IMG/VR virus record: IMGVR_UViG_3300037010_000793
Location: 12,845 to 76,844 of that record
Direction: 5' to 3' (one strand)
DNA length: 64,000 nt
Source: a virus
Below are positions 6,377-63,993 of the stretch, in pieces. Each line of letters opens with the position of its first letter. The first letter of the stretch is position 1. Both the position numbers and the translations under genes were made by a program. Below the pieces are notes generated by a model that did not search any database, was not told where the DNA came from, and saw nothing but the letters and a program-made list of their open reading frames with translations.

Positions 6377-7624
6377 TTATTCTCCAATCTTTAAAAACAC
6401 TGAGCTATTATCAGATGCACTAATAGCATATCTAACCATTTTGTCTACGATCATATTCTGATTTTCATCACTTTCTAACACGCTAATTAACTCTAACCCT
6501 TTAAACTTACCTAGCATGTATGAATCACTCACGTCTCCACTCATTACTTTATGTATAAATTCATCAAATGACGTATCCACTTTTTCATATAGTGAAGACG
6601 CTAAGTCATAAAATTTGCCTAAATGACTAACACATCTATTACTTCTATTGACATCCAGCGACGGGGTTAGACGATTATCAAAGAATTTAGATATTTTCTT
6701 TTCACCTATTTTTCCGTGATTAGCTTCATGTCCTTTAACTTCACCTTGCCAATTAGAGTTGACGTTAAACGGTCTAAACTGGATTCTGCCTGGCTTTCCA
6801 TTGATAACATAATGAACATATACGTCAATCGAGTCATTTAAGAATGTTGATTTTGTTATATTAAACCCGCTGTACTCTATATCAAGAGTCATATTAGGTG
6901 TATTGTATTCAGTTATTTTGCAGAATTTAGACACTTTTTTGAGACTAACACCAATTAAATTCCCAGCTTTATAACTATCGTGCATGTGACTGTTTAATTC
7001 TTGAAGCGTTTCAGCTCTACTTAGAATAGTGTTAACATCCCATTCCTTATTAATCATCCAGATGTCTGATGGGTTCCATTTGTTAATATTGCTAAACGGA
7101 TCATCAAGTTTTTTGTTAAGCTCGCTAAACTTGGATGCAATTGATTTTACAGTGTATGATCCTTTATGATGAATATAATCATGCGGATGTTCAATATGAT
7201 TCGCTAGCATGCTTGCAATAATAATAGCAGATTTATGCCATGTATCACAAACATTTTTATGAATATCATCGACTGGTAAATCTATATCATACCCATGGTT
7301 ATCAATAGTGTTTGCATTGTAATAACACTGTAGACATTCGACTTTACCAGTCAACTCAGATCCAGCTCCGCTAGCCAGTTTACCACCAAATTCATCTGTC
7401 TTGGAAAACTGTGCTAGCGTTCTTACTGAACCGTCACCCATGATAAACGGAGCATATCCCAAGTTGTTCCGGATGTTCTGTAATGATGTGAGATTATGTT
7501 GTATATTACTAACTAATAATAATTCACCTGATTCCATCTGGAACAATGATTCAGATTTAATTTTCTTACTAAAAATCTCTATCCTATCATACTTACGAAT
7601 TGTAGCAGGTGATAAGCAGCCCAT
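6377..7624 (-). CDS. PD-(D/E)xK-like nuclease of T4-like phages
   Basis: NKWNPSDIW...LIGVSLKK motif. Confidence 0.6.
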   Translation of the reverse strand: MGCLSPATIRKYDRIEIFSKKIKSESLFQMESGELLLVSNIQHNLTSLQNIRNNLGYAPFIMGDGSVRTLAQFSKTDEFGGKLASGAGSELTGKVECLQCYYNANTIDNHGYDIDLPVDDIHKNVCDTWHKSAIIIASMLANHIEHPHDYIHHKGSYTVKSIASKFSELNKKLDDPFSNINKWNPSDIWMINKEWDVNTILSRAETLQELNSHMHDSYKAGNLIGVSLKKVSKFCKITEYNTPNMTLDIEYSGFNITKSTFLNDSIDVYVHYVINGKPGRIQFRPFNVNSNWQGEVKGHEANHGKIGEKKISKFFDNRLTPSLDVNRSNRCVSHLGKFYDLASSLYEKVDTSFDEFIHKVMSGDVSDSYMLGKFKGLELISVLESDENQNMIVDKMVRYAISASDNSSVFLKIGE

Positions 7625-10531: not shown

Positions 10532-12220
10532 TCAGATCACGCTGTCGATCCTAGCTCGGATCTCATCAAATGTGCTGATGTTATAGAATAATCCATCTTC
10601 ATACACTTTGACAAGAAGGCCTTGTTCTTCTTGTTCCGCGGATTGCTCATCAAAAAGAACAAGTTCATTGTCAACGCACTCAACACGAACAAGCCCTTTG
10701 GCTGATTTTTTAGTCCCATCATCAGTTTTAGGGTCTTTATTTAAGTTAATAGGTGCACCATCTACGATTGCGTATGTAGCCTTAAGTGCCATACCCAATG
10801 TATCACGTGTGCTATAATTGTAAGTAAAGCTACCTGCAGCTACTATAACGTTGGTACTTGCAAAGCCTTTTGCTTTTAGTCTATTGGTGATATCTAGTGC
10901 GCGCTTAACTGTGATGCTATCTCCATAAATCATGCCAATGTGACTGTCTAGTAAGCGATATCCTTTTTCTGTGATAGTACCGCCAAACGTTTCCCATAAG
11001 CATTCTACTGTACCTTTCATTTCCGGTGTAACTAACTCATCCTGAATAGGAGCAGATAGAATACCTTCATCGGTAACAGTACATACCATATAGCTATTGG
11101 TATAAACCTCTAACTCTACGGTAGTGTTAACAAACACAAATGTGTTAACACTGGGGTTATTTTTAAACCAGCGCTCTACATCAGTTAGTGTTTTAACTGG
11201 AATAGCGATACCACAAATGATTTGAACAGGATCACCTGAATCTGGCCGAATGACTACCTTTGACATTCCTAACGAATCGGGTGCTCGATTAAGAATATCT
11301 TCTTTTAGTCGAGGTACGATGTCAGTAATAACATTCCAGTAATCATAAGAATCACATACCCGAGCAACAACACCTGAAGGGTAAACCTCGGTGATCAACC
11401 GCTTCATTTGAATATATTCTGCTTCATTCAATGAAATGTTGTTACGCTTAGCGATAGTTTGAATTGCTAAAGTCTCTGTCATATGCTCTGACGCATTAAC
11501 AGATCCTGCGATGAATGACCCAAACGGTGCATTATAATAATCAACCACCATCGCAGTTGAACCGATAGCATCACTACCGTAAAAACACGTTAGATGGCAC
11601 ATACCTTGTCGAGCTGCATCAGCGCTACCAGACATACCTCGCGCACTAAAGTCATGGCATTGCCACTTTACAAAGCCAGTATTACCTACCGTTTCTATAG
11701 CAGCTGCAGTCAATAACCTGCGATAGGCTAGCGCGATGGTGGCATTGTTTACTGATTTCCAGGTTTCATTTGAAATAACAGTCTCAAGGTAACCGGTAAC
11801 CCAAGCAAAGTCTTTATGTGTGTTAATCATAGTCAAACCAGGGATCTTTGCCTTCATAAGCGAACCCTCTTTTAGCGACTTAACTCTAATAGGAAGGTAA
11901 CCTAGTTTGTGCAATGATACAATATGGCTATCATCGTATGATCCACCCGAAAAGTAGCAAACTTGTGAACGAAAGTTCTTCAACGCTGTTTCTACATCAA
12001 CTTTAAAGAATTCACGTTCAAATGCATCATGAATCATTTTCATGGTAGCTTGAACACCAAACCAAACCGCGTGATCATCTGTTAAGTTACGTGTTTCTTT
12101 TGGCAAGTGCTTAAAGCTACGTGGAGTGAATGTTTCATAGATATACTCAGTACCTGGAAACATCTGAGCTTTATGTGAAATTTTATATGAGTCGGCACTC
12201 ATTAAAACATTATTAATCAT
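10532..12220 (-). CDS. nadV: nicotinamide phosphoribosyltransferase (Nampt/Namat-like)
   Basis: DSYKISH, HDFSARG, ASEH, DSYDYW, RPDSGDP, IYGDSIT, KDPKTDDGTKKSAKG. Confidence 0.93.
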   Translation of the reverse strand: MINNVLMSADSYKISHKAQMFPGTEYIYETFTPRSFKHLPKETRNLTDDHAVWFGVQATMKMIHDAFEREFFKVDVETALKNFRSQVCYFSGGSYDDSHIVSLHKLGYLPIRVKSLKEGSLMKAKIPGLTMINTHKDFAWVTGYLETVISNETWKSVNNATIALAYRRLLTAAAIETVGNTGFVKWQCHDFSARGMSGSADAARQGMCHLTCFYGSDAIGSTAMVVDYYNAPFGSFIAGSVNASEHMTETLAIQTIAKRNNISLNEAEYIQMKRLITEVYPSGVVARVCDSYDYWNVITDIVPRLKEDILNRAPDSLGMSKVVIRPDSGDPVQIICGIAIPVKTLTDVERWFKNNPSVNTFVFVNTTVELEVYTNSYMVCTVTDEGILSAPIQDELVTPEMKGTVECLWETFGGTITEKGYRLLDSHIGMIYGDSITVKRALDITNRLKAKGFASTNVIVAAGSFTYNYSTRDTLGMALKATYAIVDGAPINLNKDPKTDDGTKKSAKGLVRVECVDNELVLFDEQSAEQEEQGLLVKVYEDGLFYNISTFDEIRARIDSVI

Positions 12221-33172: not shown

Positions 33173-33211
33173 TTTATTACCTTTACTTGTTACAATGTTA
33201 TTAATAGAATA

Positions 33212-33553
33212 CTATGATCCAAGCCAAACAACATCATTACCAGTGTATTGATATAAGATGTCTTCTAGACACTCTAAGAATGAATCACCAAATCCAACAA
33301 TACCATATCCGTTTGCATATCCAGGGATACCCATAAGTATGAGTTCACCTTTGAATGTATCTTGATTTTCTTTGAACCAGATATAGATGGTATTGATGTG
33401 CCTAATGCCTTTGCCATTATCATAATCCTTGGTTAAAGAGAATGTATCAACGATTGGGAGTACTAAGCCATTTGAGTCAGGCTCTTCTGTTGGATTTGGG
33501 TTATCAAAAATAAACACCCGATTGCCATCGATAAGATAGTATGTATTTTTCAT
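33212..33553 (-). CDS. hypothetical protein
   Basis: directly downstream of a promoter repeat. Confidence 0.65.
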   Translation of the reverse strand: MKNTYYLIDGNRVFIFDNPNPTEEPDSNGLVLPIVDTFSLTKDYDNGKGIRHINTIYIWFKENQDTFKGELILMGIPGYANGYGIVGFGDSFLECLEDILYQYTGNDVVWLGS

Positions 33554-35314: not shown

Positions 35315-35779
35315 TTAATAATATTCGTCTAATCTAACAAACCATCTTTTAAACGATTCCATATCGCCAAACACTGGGATATCATATCGCTCACACACAA
35401 TATCTACGTTACCCTTTCGGTAAAACCCAGCAGGACAAACAACAAAAATGCTCTTATCTTTAAACAGTCCAAACTCTAATAAACTAATTGGTGATTTAGA
35501 ATTTGGGGCAAAATACATCAAGATGTGATCGCATTTCTCAAGGTGATCAAGCTCCCAAAGAACTCGTTCTCGGAAAGGTCCATCGTCCTTTCCTTGCTTC
35601 CATGAATTATTCCAATCTAACCATCGAGGATTGTAAACGTCTATACCTTGATTAGTAAAATAATCAGTAATATCACGCCGCCAATCATCGCCAGGGACCA
35701 TATCAATACTACCAGCTAAGAATACAGATCTGTTTTTGCTTGATGTTCTCTCAAGTGAATAATATCTTCTACCGCTCAT
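35315..35779 (-). CDS. nucleoside 2-deoxyribosyltransferase-like domain protein
   Basis: VFLAGSI, WR, YNPR, WEL, SPISLLEFG, GFYRKGNV. Confidence 0.82.
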   Translation of the reverse strand: MSGRRYYSLERTSSKNRSVFLAGSIDMVPGDDWRRDITDYFTNQGIDVYNPRWLDWNNSWKQGKDDGPFRERVLWELDHLEKCDHILMYFAPNSKSPISLLEFGLFKDKSIFVVCPAGFYRKGNVDIVCERYDIPVFGDMESFKRWFVRLDEYY

Positions 35780-37443: not shown

Positions 37444-38086
37444 CTTTTATCTCCAAACTAACCGATACACCTTCTTCGAATCTAACAAGATTGACTAACG
37501 AGTTCTTTGGTTTGGTTTGCTTTCGAATGCGGGTACGAACCTCTGGTGAAACTTCGACATTAATCGGACCATTCCAATCTCCTTCATACTCGCATTCTAT
37601 GTCAGCTTCCCACAACTTTGTCCTAGGATTCCAAGTCGGCTTACTATGAAATGCAAAAACGTCATAATCAACACGGTAACTAGCTCTAGGAAAAACTCCA
37701 TCAATAGCGATATAATTATACCCATTAGGAACTTTGACAATTTCACCCCAAAAGTAAAAACTACTAATGTCAGCATGTTCTGGATTCGACTGACATTGAT
37801 CTTGGTCTTGAATTGTTGGTATTTTTGAGTTCATGGCTAATTTTTCCATTAATTGTTGGTGTCGAACACTGTAAACTTCTGATGCTAATTTCTCACTGAG
37901 AACATTGAACATATCGACAGGAATATTATATTCTTGCGAATATTGGTCTACAACAGCATAAAATGGGTCAACTTCGTATAGGAAGCACCCGTCATCGTTT
38001 AACCCAGTTTCATACGCATCGATGATTTGTTCGAGTTGGTCGCTAGTGAATTGGCTGGCGATTAGATATTGTCGAATGTTCATCAT
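37421..38086 (-). CDS. hypothetical protein
   Basis: GAGG RBS, promoter upstream. Confidence 0.65.
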   Translation of the reverse strand: MMNIRQYLIASQFTSDQLEQIIDAYETGLNDDGCFLYEVDPFYAVVDQYSQEYNIPVDMFNVLSEKLASEVYSVRHQQLMEKLAMNSKIPTIQDQDQCQSNPEHADISSFYFWGEIVKVPNGYNYIAIDGVFPRASYRVDYDVFAFHSKPTWNPRTKLWEADIECEYEGDWNGPINVEVSPEVRTRIRKQTKPKNSLVNLVRFEEGVSVSLEIKDVHNTSQ

Positions 38087-38178
38087 TTTGGTTTCCTCAT
38101 CAGGATTTAGTAGTTAAATTTAAGGTTTCCATCAACTTGTAATTATTATAACCTAAGTCATGAGAAAAGTAAATAGAT

Positions 38179-38635
38179 TTAATGGTTATCGTTGTCAATA
38201 ATCACAGTGGTTCCTGTATTGAATACGAAAGTTGATGATGCTTTCGTCAGAATAAAAAATTTCATCAGTGATTCCAACCGATGCATGGTCAACATAAGAT
38301 GAGGGGTATGTTCCCACCCACAACACATTGTATCCTAAGTATTCAGAAATAACATAATTGAGTTTATCGAAAATGCTTTCATCATTAGAATCAGTTTCAT
38401 CAATGTATGCTGCTTGTGCATATAGATAACTGAGACGGTCTTCCCAATTGGTTAATGTTTCTATGCCCCAACCAAACGCACCGCCAACAACCAAAATTGT
38501 ATCGGACTCTTTGTCGTATAAAATTGATGTTTCTACTTCAACAGGTTTTCGTAATTTCGAAGGGTCAGTTCCTAACGTGAATGAGTGAGAAGAACTTGAG
38601 TTGGTCTCAAACGTAGAATTGCGGATTTGTTTCAT
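38179..38635 (-). pseudogene. 'FETNSSSSH' family protein, frameshift near 3' end
   Basis: MKQIRNSTFETNSSSSHS; removing one T near 38228 gives IINFVFNTGTTVIIDNDNH*. Confidence 0.65.
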
Positions 38636-50983: not shown

Positions 50984-52228
50984 TCATGTCTTGATACCTG
51001 CACCTGTATAGAAGTAGAAACCATCATGGTATTTCATAAAACCTGCATGGTATTTCACAAAACCTGCCTTTAACCACTTAGGTAGTTCATCACACAATAT
51101 GGGGTACTTTAACCCGTCCACTGGTACGGTAGGGTGGAATTCGTGGACGATTTCGAGCGCGCCTACACAGCGACTTCTATTGAATAACAACACTTCCCTT
51201 GTCTGACAAACATAGAAATAGTCGTCATCATGATTAGAATAGCACGAGCAACTCGCGAGTATTTGTCCGTTATTATATCTTGAGTAGCACGTATCGGACT
51301 CGCTGTGCCAATCACCGCCAATTATTACATAGCCAGGGCGGAGCGTACCACTGTGATATTCGCTGTGTCCATTTGAAGTGTCACACCTATATGTGTTCGC
51401 CGTTTCATTCGTCACGATGGCAAACTCGTTTCCATGGTTCCATGATACATAACTATAATCACCGTCAAGATACGGCATTTTTATTCTAATGTCGGTATTG
51501 CATACTTCGTCATGATCACCACCTATATAGCGGAGGCGACAGTTTAATAGACACTCGGTATTATGCGTGTATTCTTCACGCTCAAGCAATGACAAGAACA
51601 ACATGCGCCACATGTTTCTACCCAACCCCTCATGAGATCGAGTATGACCAACAACTGTTGGGTATGCGCGGACAAACTGCCTGGTTTTGCGATTGCATAC
51701 GGCACGGCCAACTACCACACCCTCATATATAGCGTATACGACCTCTATGTCAGCTGTGTCATAAACCTCAACTGATGTTTCATTACTCATACAGCTATCA
51801 CAGATATGTTTATCCTCGTAAATACGGCAAATTTCGTCAGAGCCAATACAAGTATCTAGTTTTAGCCATGAAGCATCAATATTCAGTGATTTATATCGCT
51901 CTGAGAAGACTTTAATCTCACTGTCACAAAGTGTAGGATCTTTACACTTTAACCATCGTCCAATCGTTGTTGTTACCCGTGTGTAATACCCGTTGGGTTT
52001 CACTTTTGAATAATCGACCCGTGTTGGGTCACTAACTGACTGCCATAGACACTCATCGTATGCCTCTGGGTATGTTGAATATAACTCATAAAAAAACCTA
52101 ACAATAACCGAGTTGTCAAAGGAAGGCATGTCCGCTTCCTTGATGTTTTGGAGATTGAGTGTATGTCTAATAGTCGCTATTAGTTCAGTGTTTTCCATGT
52201 TCATTCTCAATAGATGACTAATGTACAA
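50984..52228 (-). CDS. hypothetical protein, GC-richer than its surroundings
   Basis: SCMS, GRAV, RAYP, MPYLDG motifs; AGFxKYH repeats at the C-terminus. Confidence 0.75.
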   Translation of the reverse strand: MYISHLLRMNMENTELIATIRHTLNLQNIKEADMPSFDNSVIVRFFYELYSTYPEAYDECLWQSVSDPTRVDYSKVKPNGYYTRVTTTIGRWLKCKDPTLCDSEIKVFSERYKSLNIDASWLKLDTCIGSDEICRIYEDKHICDSCMSNETSVEVYDTADIEVVYAIYEGVVVGRAVCNRKTRQFVRAYPTVVGHTRSHEGLGRNMWRMLFLSLLEREEYTHNTECLLNCRLRYIGGDHDEVCNTDIRIKMPYLDGDYSYVSWNHGNEFAIVTNETANTYRCDTSNGHSEYHSGTLRPGYVIIGGDWHSESDTCYSRYNNGQILASCSCYSNHDDDYFYVCQTREVLLFNRSRCVGALEIVHEFHPTVPVDGLKYPILCDELPKWLKAGFVKYHAGFMKYHDGFYFYTGAGIKT

Positions 52229-53665: not shown

Positions 53666-53781
53666 GTCTTTACCTTAAAAATAAATTAATGTTATACCAC
53701 ACGACTGTTAATCCTCACGTATTACAGCAACTAGCACGATGCATCATAAAGCAGTTAACCGGTATAATTTTCATAATACTA

Positions 53782-55605: not shown

Positions 55606-55883
55606 TTTTGATTCCGTGCGAAATAATTATTAAAAACCGCCACTGAAAGGTGGCCGAAGCTTGCATTTAGTTTAGCAACCTATTCTTGCCATCTTCTAGT
55701 TATGCTCCGACGATGGCATAAAAATAGGGCCATCAAGATGTTCTACACAAAAATCAACAGCTGCTGATAAACTATCAAACCAATAACCGGTAGACTCACC
55801 GTACTGAGTAATAATCTCAAACAAGTGATTATGCCGGTTTAATATATGGGGTTACTTTCATTTTGATTTCATATTCTCTGTTT

Positions 55884-61450: not shown

Positions 61451-61684
61451 TTAATGAGTAAAGAGTTTACCATATTGTTTATCCAACTCAGAGAATTCAT
61501 TACATAAAAAATACGATGCATCATCTTTAACGTTAGACATGGACTGTTTAGCAAATAAATGTCCATCTTCAGTCATAAATCGCTTAAATTTCATAGTTGA
61601 GTTATATGATGGTCCAATTAACATAATGTCTTCCTGTTCTGCAATACTGCGAATTTCACCAGCTGTGTATAAAATACTAGACAT
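61451..61684 (-). CDS. hypothetical protein
   Basis: AGGA RBS, promoter upstream. Confidence 0.65.
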   Translation of the reverse strand: MSSILYTAGEIRSIAEQEDIMLIGPSYNSTMKFKRFMTEDGHLFAKQSMSNVKDDASYFLCNEFSELDKQYGKLFTH

Positions 61685-61717
61685 TTATTTCTTCCTAACT
61701 TTGTTTAACTTAGAACT

Positions 61718-61747
61718 ATTATACAACATTAACAGTCAAAAGTAAAC
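61718..61747 (-). promoter_or_regulatory. T4-type early promoter (leftward)
   Basis: GTTTAC at 61742-61747, TATAAT at 61718-61723. Confidence 0.75.
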
Positions 61748-61789
61748 AAAAATAGTTAAAATAAAAATATTTCAAAAATAGTTAAAATA
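61747..61789. repeat. 17-bp direct repeat pair
   Basis: CAAAAATAGTTAAAATA at 61747 and 61773. Confidence 0.85.
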
Positions 61790-61792
61790 CTT

Positions 61793-61822
61793 GTTTACTT
61801 TTACCAAGAACTATGTTATAAT
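61793..61822 (+). promoter_or_regulatory. T4-type early promoter (rightward)
   Basis: GTTTAC 61793-61798, TATGTTATAAT ending at 61822. Confidence 0.75.
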
Positions 61823-61888
61823 ACAAAAGTTATTAAAATTTTAAGGTTATACAACTTTACCATTCGATTATAATAACATAAAACATGA

Positions 61889-61896
61889 TATAAATA
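61889..61896 (+). promoter_or_regulatory. T4-type late promoter
   Basis: TATAAATA immediately before the first hairpin. Confidence 0.6.
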
Positions 61897-62478
61897 AACT
61901 ATCTCTGTGGGTTAACATCGAATCAAGTTAACCAGGTTATCAGACTATGCTATGGTACGTCTAAAACCTTGTAAAGACAAATCGTTAAAACACTTTACTA
62001 AATTAAACATAATCTACCGTAGACCAAAAGTTTTCAAACAAACGACTTTTGCTGGCAATGCTCCCCTTTGTACCCAGCGCTTATACTGATATCCCAGTAA
62101 GACGGGATGGTCTTGGATCAGGAACTAGTAGAATGAATACCCATGTTAGTCGTAATTCTATGAGGTTGATAACAACCGATGTTAATATAGACAATTAAAT
62201 TAGTAGCCCTAATCTAAAGTCTTTATTGATCTAGCTAGAGAGTCCTATTAAATCTCTAGAAGGAGACAGTTCTACGGGAATGAACTGAATAGCGTTTTTA
62301 ATATGTCTTGGTTGACACGCTAAAGCATCACTGAGTATTCTTAGTCATTCATTTGACTGCTATCGTTACTATTGATAGCCCTGTATAAAAATCTTATATC
62401 TGTATTGGATACCAAGGTCATTATCAGGAAAGGAGAAAAGGAGGTAGCTGTGTCTAAAAATTGTGGCGATTTCTAGAC

Positions 62479-62503
62479 AAAAGAAAAGGAGCCGAAGCTC
62501 CTT
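62479..62503 (-). terminator. UUCG terminator (minus; possibly bidirectional)
   Basis: AAGGAGC-TTCG-GCTCCTT-TTCTTTT on minus. Confidence 0.75.
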
Positions 62504-62708
62504 GTTTCTGAAAGTTTTTTGCTTGGTTTTGCTGGCGCCAAATACATGTACGATTTAATAACTTCGTTAATAAATTCTAAAAAGTTTTCATTATAATAGT
62601 ATCAGGGTTGTTTCAGGGTTCACAGGTTTAATCCAAAAAGAAAAGATATAGATTTTATCATCTATCGTGATTATAATTAAACCTGGGTGATTCAGACGAA
62701 TTGCTGAT

Positions 62709-62734
62709 AAAAATATGGAGAGCAAAAGCTCTCC
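62709..62734 (-). terminator. terminator after ruvC
   Basis: GGAGAGC-TTTT-GCTCTCC-ATATTTTT on minus. Confidence 0.65.
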
Positions 62735-62748
62735 AATGTTATGTTATT

Positions 62749-63288
62749 TTATATTGTTTTAATTATTTCGTAAAAATCACAGTTATACCGCGACAAGAAA
62801 TACGCATCTACACAATCATTAAACGAGCTCAAATTTGGATTAGTTATTTCAAACTTAGAGCAAAATGTTGTCATCATGAGATGTTTATTGGCGTTACCCT
62901 TTCCAGTTGCAAACTTCTTAAGACTTGTTGGCGCTATAATATTAATAGTGATACCATTAGCTAATAGGTTCAATTTAAGAATAGTTGTATTCTCTGCAAT
63001 AGTGAATACCTGGCCTGCTCTTGAACCCATCGAGTACCCTTCCAGGTTTATCTCTTTAATATCTGATGGAATCTTGCTTGTAATCCATTTAGACAGCAGC
63101 TTAAATCGTTCTATATTATTAGTATAATCGCTTGGATATTGCTCAATAACTAATGTAATATTTTCAGATATTTGATGAACGCCTAATTCTTTCTTCTTAG
63201 ACGATAGTCCAAACATCTTAACGCTATCACCGTCGACTATAGCAATACCTGGAGATGTCATGCTATAATCAATGCCGCACTTAATCAT
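62749..63288 (-). CDS. ruvC: RuvC-like Holliday junction resolvase
   Basis: GIDYSMTSPG, LEGYS, PTSLKKFATGKGNANK, DCVDAY. Confidence 0.88.
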   Translation of the reverse strand: MIKCGIDYSMTSPGIAIVDGDSVKMFGLSSKKKELGVHQISENITLVIEQYPSDYTNNIERFKLLSKWITSKIPSDIKEINLEGYSMGSRAGQVFTIAENTTILKLNLLANGITINIIAPTSLKKFATGKGNANKHLMMTTFCSKFEITNPNLSSFNDCVDAYFLSRYNCDFYEIIKTI

Positions 63289-63973
63289 CTGATTTTTTAG
63301 CTGCATTAGATCTATCAGACCCATCCATATTCAAATCATCAACTGTTCGTTGAAGTTTATCGTTAAGAGAATCACGTCTGTTTTTATTTCTTCTAAGAAT
63401 CCTGTTTGTAGCTCGTTTGATTAAAGAACCCAATGGCATTTCAGTCTTAGCAGTAGCATCAGTCGTCATTATACTTGTATCCGACAAACCTTCATCTTCT
63501 ACTAAATCTACAATCTTAACAACATCAACAGGAACGACAAAAGCGCCTGATTCTGTATAGATTGATACACTATTGCCTGTTAGATGAAAACTATCTTGTT
63601 TTGTTACTACACATAGTGTACCCTCAGAAATATCATTATAAGTCTTTACAAAACGACCAACGCTTACAGTTGATTCTAATGATTCAGCTGCTTCATTTGT
63701 AAAAACTGATTTCATCAATGTTCTTAATAGCGCATACTTAATGAAAGGGTAGTTTTCGACTGTACGCTTTAGATTTAGAGCAAACAAGTTAAAAGGCGTT
63801 TTGGCTTCCTTTTGTTCCATTGTTACATATTGTGGATGTAATGAATTACCGTTTTCATCAATGAATCCGGCAGAATACAATGGATTGTGTGTATAATCGT
63901 TTTTAATCAACTTATAAAGTTGAGCTAAAGCTATAGCGGTAATTACACTTTTAAACATTAGGTTGCCCCTCAA
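63281..63973 (-). CDS. hypothetical late protein
   Basis: AGFIDENGN motif; TATAAATA upstream. Confidence 0.7.
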   Translation of the reverse strand: MRGNLMFKSVITAIALAQLYKLIKNDYTHNPLYSAGFIDENGNSLHPQYVTMEQKEAKTPFNLFALNLKRTVENYPFIKYALLRTLMKSVFTNEAAESLESTVSVGRFVKTYNDISEGTLCVVTKQDSFHLTGNSVSIYTESGAFVVPVDVVKIVDLVEDEGLSDTSIMTTDATAKTEMPLGSLIKRATNRILRRNKNRRDSLNDKLQRTVDDLNMDGSDRSNAAKKSDD

Positions 63974-63985
63974 ATAAGATATTAG

Positions 63986-63993
63986 TATTTATA
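63986..63993 (-). promoter_or_regulatory. T4-type late promoter
   Basis: TATAAATA on minus. Confidence 0.6.

Follow-up and report, generated by a model that had tools for sequence, protein, structure and literature searches.

A probable large structured non-coding RNA on the strand opposite all genes of an uncultivated T4-like phage

A gap of about 1 kb next to the ruvC gene of a T4-like phage probably encodes a large structured non-coding RNA (about 0.6-0.9 kb). It would be transcribed from the plus strand, opposite all genes. This reading is supported by helices that are kept by compensatory changes, by invariant loops, and by promoter motifs and terminator hairpins that flank the RNA unit in two phages. 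The initial annotation had proposed a new large structured plus-strand RNA at this place. Its proposal gains support from the compensatory changes in a homologous locus (L104), the strand-specific G-U pairs, the promoters, and the lack of a match in Rfam.

The window, meaning the whole stretch of 64,000 nucleotides analyzed here, comprises bases 12845 to 76844 of contig G000. This contig is a 76.8-kb IMG/VR virus record with 35% GC and an estimated completeness of about 50%. Every credible gene of the window is on the minus strand, and the plus-strand ORFs of at least 100 aa overlap these genes. The RuvC of G000 is at most 39% identical to that of sequenced phages, and the tail sheath of its relative, G040, at most 32%. 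For both proteins, the best relatives among sequenced phages are mostly T4-like and similar large myoviruses. By these protein comparisons, G000 is an uncultivated T4-like phage, distant from all cultured phages. Metagenomes from microbial mats, sediments, and freshwater contain DNA of this region, and none of the sequencing runs listed for it is an RNA run.

Nowhere else in the 76.8-kb contig is there so long a stretch free of ORFs of at least 70 aa as the gap (61685-62748), which includes the ORF-less stretch of about 830 bp that had been reported. On its left lies a 77-aa gene (61451-61684, minus strand), which diverges from the promoter zone. This gene is called in the protein collection and has a codon score typical of the phage's genes. 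On its right, ruvC (62749-63324, minus strand) encodes a RuvC-like Holliday junction resolvase (phrog_159, E 3e-28) and is convergent with the RNA. The nearest relative of this RuvC is P0002 (86% identity), encoded on a 6-kb JGI contig.

No ORF was found in the gap under four genetic codes, and no long reading frame opens when TAG is read as Q, TGA as W, or TAA as Q. The small ORFs of the gap have codon scores near 0, compared with 0.26 ± 0.12 for real genes. None of them was called as a gene in the protein collection or gave a Pfam or PHROG match, and only one frame, of 8 codons, has a ribosome-binding site. The gap region is non-coding, given the closed frames in the alternative codes, the codon scores, and the absence of family matches and of ribosome-binding sites beyond that frame. 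Between the blocks of the gap that are conserved in L104 there are indels of 1, 2, 4, and 7 nt. The reading as small ORFs or as genes in an alternative code was rejected on the codon scores, the lack of called genes, and the closed frames. Pseudogene remnants were also rejected, because no remnant of a protein family was detected.

The exceptional frame follows a polypurine, Shine-Dalgarno-like tract (62426-62445, plus strand) that is partly conserved in L104. This tract is the sole strong Shine-Dalgarno sequence with a start codon on the plus strand of the gap. It is followed by GTG and only 8 codons, which is too short for a gene. The arrangement of a strong Shine-Dalgarno sequence and, 5 nt on, a start codon with a micro-ORF occurs at 62440-62476 of the window and at 7087-7070 of L104 (minus strand). 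The micro-ORF lies in the conserved polypurine region near the RNA 3' end; it has 8 codons in the window and only 3, in another register, in L104.

All 14 stem pairs named in the initial annotation are exact reverse complements at their coordinates. Taken by itself, the window sequence has a signal of structure that is only modestly beyond chance. Perfect hairpins with stems of at least 6 bp number 9 in 61903-62480, against 3.6 ± 2.0 in shuffled sequences (about 2.5-fold, p ~0.03), but a count of 9 is also reached in 5 of 110 tiles of the same size across the window. For 61900-62485, the z score of the minimum free energy (MFE) is -2.08 on the plus strand and -3.31 on the minus strand. Sliding windows of 120 nt on the plus strand gave z values mostly from -0.2 to -2.6, with a background of -0.17 ± 1.14. 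The expectation of folding better than shuffles is thus borne out in part: the hairpin excess and the plus-strand z score are modest but present, while the minus strand folds slightly better. It is the comparison with the L104 homologue that makes the stems significant.

This homologue is part of the 82-kb viral contig G040. It was found by scanning viral contigs for the stem of a 76-nt hairpin repeat that adjoins the gap. The minus strand of L104 aligns with the plus strand of the window from the promoter to about 62525. The homology covers about 600 nt, with 61934-62450 as its main part and weaker similarity on to about 62525. The core of the two RNAs is about 75% identical, and several loops are invariant. 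Identical or nearly identical blocks are found at 61943-61963, 61998-62011, 62019-62029, 62050-62079, 62088-62111, 62135-62154, 62264-62287, and in parts of 62418-62452. They are separated by diverged stretches and indels. The syntenic segments of the window and L104, each folded alone, give the same architecture.

For the covariation test, twelve helices were defined from the window alone and mapped to L104 through exact anchors. Sixty of the 64 stem pairs form in L104: 35 are unchanged, 20 carry double changes, and 5 carry one-sided changes. The 4 broken pairs are all at helix ends. Under a null of neutral substitution, 46.6 ± 2.7 pairs form, and none of 4000 simulations reaches 60. When a register freedom of ±2 nt is allowed for both the data and the null, p is ~0.005. 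Seven stems had been written down before L104 was known; these keep 37 of 41 pairs (p <0.0003, or 0.02 with register freedom). The check by covariation proposed at the outset therefore gives 20 compensatory double changes in 12 helices against one homologue. Since only two full sequences carry this covariation, it is not of R-scape grade, and the individual helices are not fixed by it and are not proven.

Contigs of four DNA runs show only four well-supported substitutions in the gap (62018, 62214, 62215, and 62313), a number too small for such a test. The four substitutions fall where the two RNAs also differ. The block of low divergence in the strains covers ruvC as well as the gap; the conservation at the strain level is therefore not specific to the gap.

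The 5' part of the RNA begins with hairpin S1 (GGTTAAC/GTTAACC, 61910-61933; all helix coordinates refer to the plus strand). At the equivalent place, L104 has a different 6-bp hairpin, AACCGT/ACGGTT. S1, S3, and S10 are all kept in L104 with changed letters. Helix S2 (AGGTT/AACCT, 61934-61969) encloses a conserved inner hairpin, and its L104 form, GAGTT/AACTC, represents two compensatory double changes. Hairpin S3 (GTAAAG/CTTTAC, 61971-61998) keeps 5 of its 6 pairs in L104, and the alignment chosen decides whether two double changes are seen or an inserted pair. It is followed by an invariant single-stranded junction, CTAAATTAAACATA (61998-62011), a 14-nt exact block common to both RNAs.

Next comes a multi-helix junction domain (62021-62113) closed by S4 (AGACCA/TGGTCT), which appears in both the MFE and the centroid folds. 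Within it, H4 (62025-62051) is a variable hairpin, deleted in L104 and indel-polymorphic among strains. H5 (62051-62078) has the invariant loop TGCTCCCCTTTG and one change from G-U to G-C in L104. H6 (ATCCC/GGGAT, 62091-62108) becomes ATCCT/AGGAT in L104, a change from C-G to U-A. This domain had been described as a four-way junction closed by AGACCA/TGGTCT. The closing helix holds, with 5 of 6 pairs kept in L104, but one of the arms is the hairpin at 62025-62051, which is variable or absent in relatives. A pairing of the H5 loop with the polypurine tract was considered by eye and rejected, with only 4-5 bp and no covariation.

The second domain is enclosed by the long-range helix S5 (62112-62416), which pairs CTTGG at 62112-62116 with CCAAG at 62412-62416. 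The L104 counterpart is TCGGG/ACCGG, in which two pairs are changed on both sides, one has become G-U, one is the same, and one is broken. The longer form that had been proposed, CTTGG-ATC/GAT-A-CCAAG, is supported in its CTTGG/CCAAG part, but its ATC/GAT extension, read by eye, is not kept in L104. The CAGG/CCTG stem lies in a region that is not alignable with L104.

Inside this domain, hairpin H7 (GTAGAAT/ATTCTAT, 62128-62161) has a conserved 20-nt loop. In L104 (ATGAAAC/GTTTCAT) it keeps 7 of 7 pairs through three double changes and one change from G-U to A-U. Hairpin S8 (CTAGAGA/TCTCTAG with three outer pairs, 62230-62264) also keeps 7 of 7 pairs in L104 (TGATAAC/GTTATCA), with five double changes, and its outer pairs show one further double and one single change. 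A third variant of S8, GATGAC...GTCATC, occurs in a loose contig end of run X2 and represents a further change, from A-U to G-C. Hairpin S9 (CAGTTC/GAACTG, 62267-62287) bears the invariant loop TACGGGAAT and belongs to a 24-nt block identical in L104. Hairpin S10 (TAGCGT/ACGCTA, 62290-62322) has a shorter loop and changed pairs in L104, where 5 of 6 form. Two regions are variable. The first (62162-62229) has hairpins that differ between the two RNAs and includes the strain substitutions 62214 and 62215. The second (62326-62410) has three hairpins, with other hairpins in L104.

The pseudoknot suggested between CCGTA and TACGG is compatible with L104, where TTGTA/TACGG can pair via G-U. However, at least two alternatives are equally compatible. 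RNAalifold finds alternative covarying pairings, for example of 61950-57 with 62015-22, which competes with the inner hairpin of S2 and with this pseudoknot.

Both pairing and folding point to the plus strand. Read as plus-strand RNA, the conserved helices have 5 G-U pairs versus 1 A-C, and all five one-sided changes are switches between Watson-Crick and G-U pairs on this strand. This is in agreement with the earlier remark on G-U pairs that work only on the plus strand. In addition, the MFE z score of L104 is -4.6 on the RNA strand and -2.2 on the other.

Upstream of the candidate RNA, a sigma-70-type early promoter (TTTACT, a spacer, and TGTTATAAT; 61794-61822, plus strand) points into the gap, with a predicted start at about 61830. 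It is conserved in L104. The early consensus of the phage, TTTAC-N16-19-TATAAT, occurs 24 times in the window versus 0.77 expected, with 21 of the 24 copies on the gene strand, and it usually has TGT ahead of the -10 box. The copy at 61794-61822 is the only one on the plus strand of the window with the full TGTTATAAT.

A T4-type late promoter box follows at 61889-61896 (plus strand), with a predicted start at about 61903. It consists of TATAAATA, which we take to be the T4 late-promoter box. The motif of the late promoter that had been described just before the candidate RNA is present there. TATAAATA is depleted in the window, with 4 copies in 64 kb versus 12.6 expected. Another copy is at 63986-63993 (minus strand), just upstream of a 230-aa gene and ruvC. 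T4 gene 49 is a late gene, and the position of this box suggests that the RuvC-like resolvase is probably a late gene as well.

Some further details of the promoter zone were observed. The early promoter cassette (61793-61823, plus strand) faces a degenerate inverted copy of itself at 61869-61899, 45 nt away. The TATAAATA box at 61889 overlaps this inverted copy and is created by the reverse complement of its -35 part; this overlap counts against the RNA reading. An exact direct repeat of 17 bp, CAAAAATAGTTAAAATA, is present at 61747-61763 and 61773-61789, 26 bp apart. It sits in the zone of 15-19% GC between the divergent promoters and could be a regulator site or an UP-like element.

The same organization is seen in G040. 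Its RNA strand has only three TATAAATA boxes and one early consensus in 82 kb, and all 4 motifs are within about 160 nt upstream of the RNA homologue. On the gene strand there are 19 early-promoter matches and, among the structural genes, 16 TATAAATA boxes. Of the 60 ORFs of at least 150 aa in G040, 58 are on one strand. A gp55-like late sigma factor is encoded two genes from the RNA homologue. Given the strandedness of the genes and the confinement of these motifs to the region upstream of the RNA, the putative RNA stands alone in both phages (~159 kb) on the strand opposite the genes, with early and late promoters. The proposal that it is expressed from both is supported by the motifs conserved upstream in the two phages.

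Two minus-strand terminators had been indicated, and both were found, at 62735-62716 and 62503-62486. T1 (62716-62735) is the terminator of the ruvC operon and the outer limit of a plus-strand RNA. T2 (62486-62503) is a hairpin with a cUUCGg loop on the minus strand and a possible RNA 3' end; it is missing from L104. Both are strong as minus-strand terminators and weaker on the plus strand, where the T-run of T2 is weaker. In both phages, the RNA unit lies ahead of terminator hairpins common with the convergent operon. L104 has a perfect bidirectional terminator (6834-6861; A5, a 6-bp GC-rich stem, and T5) between the tail sheath gene and the RNA homologue, which would serve both convergent units.

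A 110-nt hairpin at 62600-62709 had been assigned to the RNA. It is not part of the conserved RNA core. The sequence contains a 76-nt hairpin repeat (62618-62693; stem CAGGTTTAAT/ATTAAACCTG, loop of about 43 nt), an independent intergenic element that is inverted relative to the RNA in L104. A copy with 95% identity is at 11058-11133 of G000 (L002). G040 has full copies at 33179-33256 and 35678-35752 and a partial one at 55652-55699 (L113, L114). There are at least 2 copies per contig, in both orientations, and the genes whose stop codons they follow are unrelated. Runs X2 and X3 have raised coverage over the repeat, and a loose end of X3 contains a variant whose stem is longer. The repeat could be a mobile intergenic element or have a regulatory role. 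In one contig of run X4, 62451 is joined directly to 62729, so that 277 nt with T2, the hairpin repeat, and half of T1 are missing. This junction suggests that strains without the T2/hairpin-repeat module exist. Another intergenic element, of about 100 nt, is at 38083-38181 of the window, with two copies in G040 (51644-51743 and 53666-53763, L114). It is 91-93% identical between G000 and G040 and far better conserved than the genes around it.

The RNA loci have different neighbors: the one in the window lies beside ruvC, and L104 lies between the tail sheath and a helicase. Each of them marks the point where the terminator of a late operon is followed by the start of the next early cluster. 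The two contigs overlap at one end: positions 1-936 of G000 match positions 3-938 of G040 (L112) in reverse, with 91.6% nucleotide identity. This overlap is within a gene whose 579-aa product is 90% identical over 228 aa. Beyond it, the two contigs have almost no common genes, and their completeness is estimated at 50% (G000) and 46% (G040). From the overlap of the ends, the few other common genes, and these estimates, G000 and G040 seem to complement each other as halves of two closely related genomes, each of about 160 kb and with nearly all genes on one strand. The two RNAs would then probably be paralogues, two per genome, one at each junction between the end of a late operon and the start of an early cluster. 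Run X2 holds both types of RNA sequence. No single contig shows both, so the presence of two loci per genome is an inference.

In the viral records and contig collections searched, the RNA was not found outside these two contigs. A covariance model of the 5' domain (R1), searched on 50 related viral records, including two complete genomes, detected only G040 and was negative in the other 49. Exact and degenerate patterns of the core in viral contigs recovered only L104. The same patterns gave 4 chance matches in metagenome contigs and 5 in genome contigs, with no true one. Both RNAs had no blastn match in 50,697 phage records, and a scan of metagenomes for loci based on RuvC gave nothing. Homologues beside ruvC had been anticipated in related phages, but 82 viral loci (RuvC identity 35-53%) have no similar DNA; in the closest ones (L014 and L009), genes come directly after ruvC. 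By its absence from the 49 related records and from all the other scans, the RNA family is very narrow and confined so far to one clade.

These observations suggest how the RNA might be made. Host RNA polymerase would start at about 61830 from the early promoter, and polymerase with a gp55-type late factor would start at about 61903 from TATAAATA. The transcript may end at T2 (about 62510; 0.6-0.7 kb) or at T1 (about 62740; 0.84-0.9 kb). Its predicted fold has two domains, a 5' junction domain (61934-62116) and another that is closed by 62112-16/62412-16. The signals for early and late expression and the invariant single-stranded loops fit best with an abundant folded RNA that acts in trans throughout infection. 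As a scaffold or decoy, it would bind a partner, either protein or RNA, with its invariant loops. We consider a trans-acting, partner-binding folded RNA the most likely mode of action, and we hold it tentatively, with rather less than half of our belief. The search for a partner or target found none: complements of the invariant loops are not enriched within the phage genome. This disfavors regulation of phage mRNAs by pairing, and the RNA would not work in that way on the phage's own mRNAs.

A more specific version is rather doubtful. It proposes an RNA class limited to a deep-branching T4-like clade, with two paralogous copies expressed early and late, that forms a self-contained machine. 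Such a machine could be a multimeric particle like those of ROOL/GOLLD, a ribozyme, or a decoy against a host RNA-binding defense or the ribosome. As a decoy, the RNA would use its invariant C-rich and purine-rich elements to disarm either target.

The RNA could instead serve as a primer for replication, which we regard as unlikely. The early promoter would give a folded pre-primer, the purine-rich 3' part would form an R-loop that primes the leading strand, and the phage would have two origins. Two loci per genome of about 160 kb, each heading an early cluster, agree with this idea, as do the strong early promoter (61794-61822) followed by about 70 bp of 19% GC and a conserved run of 15-18 purines near the RNA 3' end. 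It also has precedents. In ColE1, the structured RNA II of about 550 nt is a pre-primer, and in T4, transcripts from promoters prime replication at the origins, with several such loci per genome. However, the firing of T4 origins is an early event, and here the RNA of each phage is also served by late TATAAATA boxes, one to three in number. No iterons were found beyond the one 17-bp pair, and invariant loops across 500 nt exceed the known needs of a primer. Moreover, replication primed in this way would run head-on into all genes.

The gap could also act in cis as a boundary. Convergent transcription and the terminators would shield the early cluster from late read-through, the hairpins would be sites of pausing, processing, or termination, and the transcript itself would have no function. 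The positions of both loci, between the terminator of a late operon (ruvC or tail sheath) and the first promoters of the next cluster, suit such a role, and the window has two tandem minus-strand terminators. But an insulator needs neither 20 compensated pairs nor invariant loops over 500 nt, and the homologous core is inside the terminators rather than at them. We find this reading quite improbable.

Finally, an absence of RNA function, in which the region would instead consist of palindromes recognized as DNA by a binding protein, of the remains of genes, or of coding sequence for one or several very small proteins, is highly improbable: perfect Watson-Crick stems are symmetrical as DNA, the hairpin excess is modest, and there is the strong Shine-Dalgarno sequence with a start codon at 62440-62452, but the G-U pairs and one-sided changes are strand-specific, the stems, all of different sequence, do not form a repeated operator, conserved ORFs are lacking (the micro-ORF differs in length and register, 8 vs 3 codons), indels of 1, 2, 4, and 7 nt fall between the blocks, the codon scores are non-coding, and no remnant of a protein family is present.

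Known bacterial or phage RNAs that exceed 500 nt and have a conserved ornate structure are very few, and their functions are open. The RNA of the gap would add a further family of large RNAs, unrelated to the known ones. It has a clear genetic setting, as the sole predicted unit on the opposite strand in ~159 kb, with early and late promoters and probably two diverged copies. This setting leads to testable ideas on timing and role, and the pair of copies offers a built-in structural comparison. Its weak points are that the phage is uncultivated and that the family is so far in one clade.

As a folded RNA driven by a promoter, with a purine-rich 3' part and more than one locus, the candidate resembles ColE1 RNA II and the T4 origin transcripts, the latter with several loci. 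It differs from them in having no known RNase H site, antisense partner, or role as an origin, and in that late promoters also feed it.

Among known RNA families, no relative was found. A cmscan search of the whole window against Rfam gave 0 matches at the gathering thresholds. ROOL and GOLLD did not match the gap at E up to 10 or the L104 region at E up to 1, in agreement with the initial annotation, which saw no match to their consensus by eye. The other families of Rfam 15 (OLE, HEARO, raiA, RNase P, tmRNA, group I/II introns, 6S, and the rest) were not matched. Only chance-level matches appeared, to short sRNA, CRISPR-repeat, and terminator-like models, far below the gathering scores. ARAGORN found no tRNA or tmRNA in the 64-kb window. 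ROOL and GOLLD are large ornate RNAs, often in prophages or phages (Rfam; PMC5737381; 10.1101/2024.12.08.627333). The candidate is like them in its size (0.6-0.85 kb), its many helices with conserved loops, its place in a phage, its non-coding nature, and the lack of a known function. In contrast with them, it is not beside tRNA genes, a frequent neighborhood of ROOL and GOLLD, and it is known from one uncultivated T4-like clade only.

Long non-coding RNAs of virulent phages offer another comparison. In ICP1, a transcript of about 800 nt comes from a 1-kb gap without ORFs between gp139 and gp140 and is the most abundant transcript of the phage (PMC7567579). Phage K carries abundant lncRNAs (PMC9241854). 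The RNA of the gap has no sequence similarity to any record of the phage collection. The ICP1 and phage K RNAs were seen by RNA-seq, and the sections of those two reports considered here do not describe a conserved structure; in our case, on the other hand, the structure is supported and the expression is only inferred. The likeness is in the setting: a virulent phage, a gap of about 1 kb without ORFs, and one long non-coding transcript presumed to come from it.
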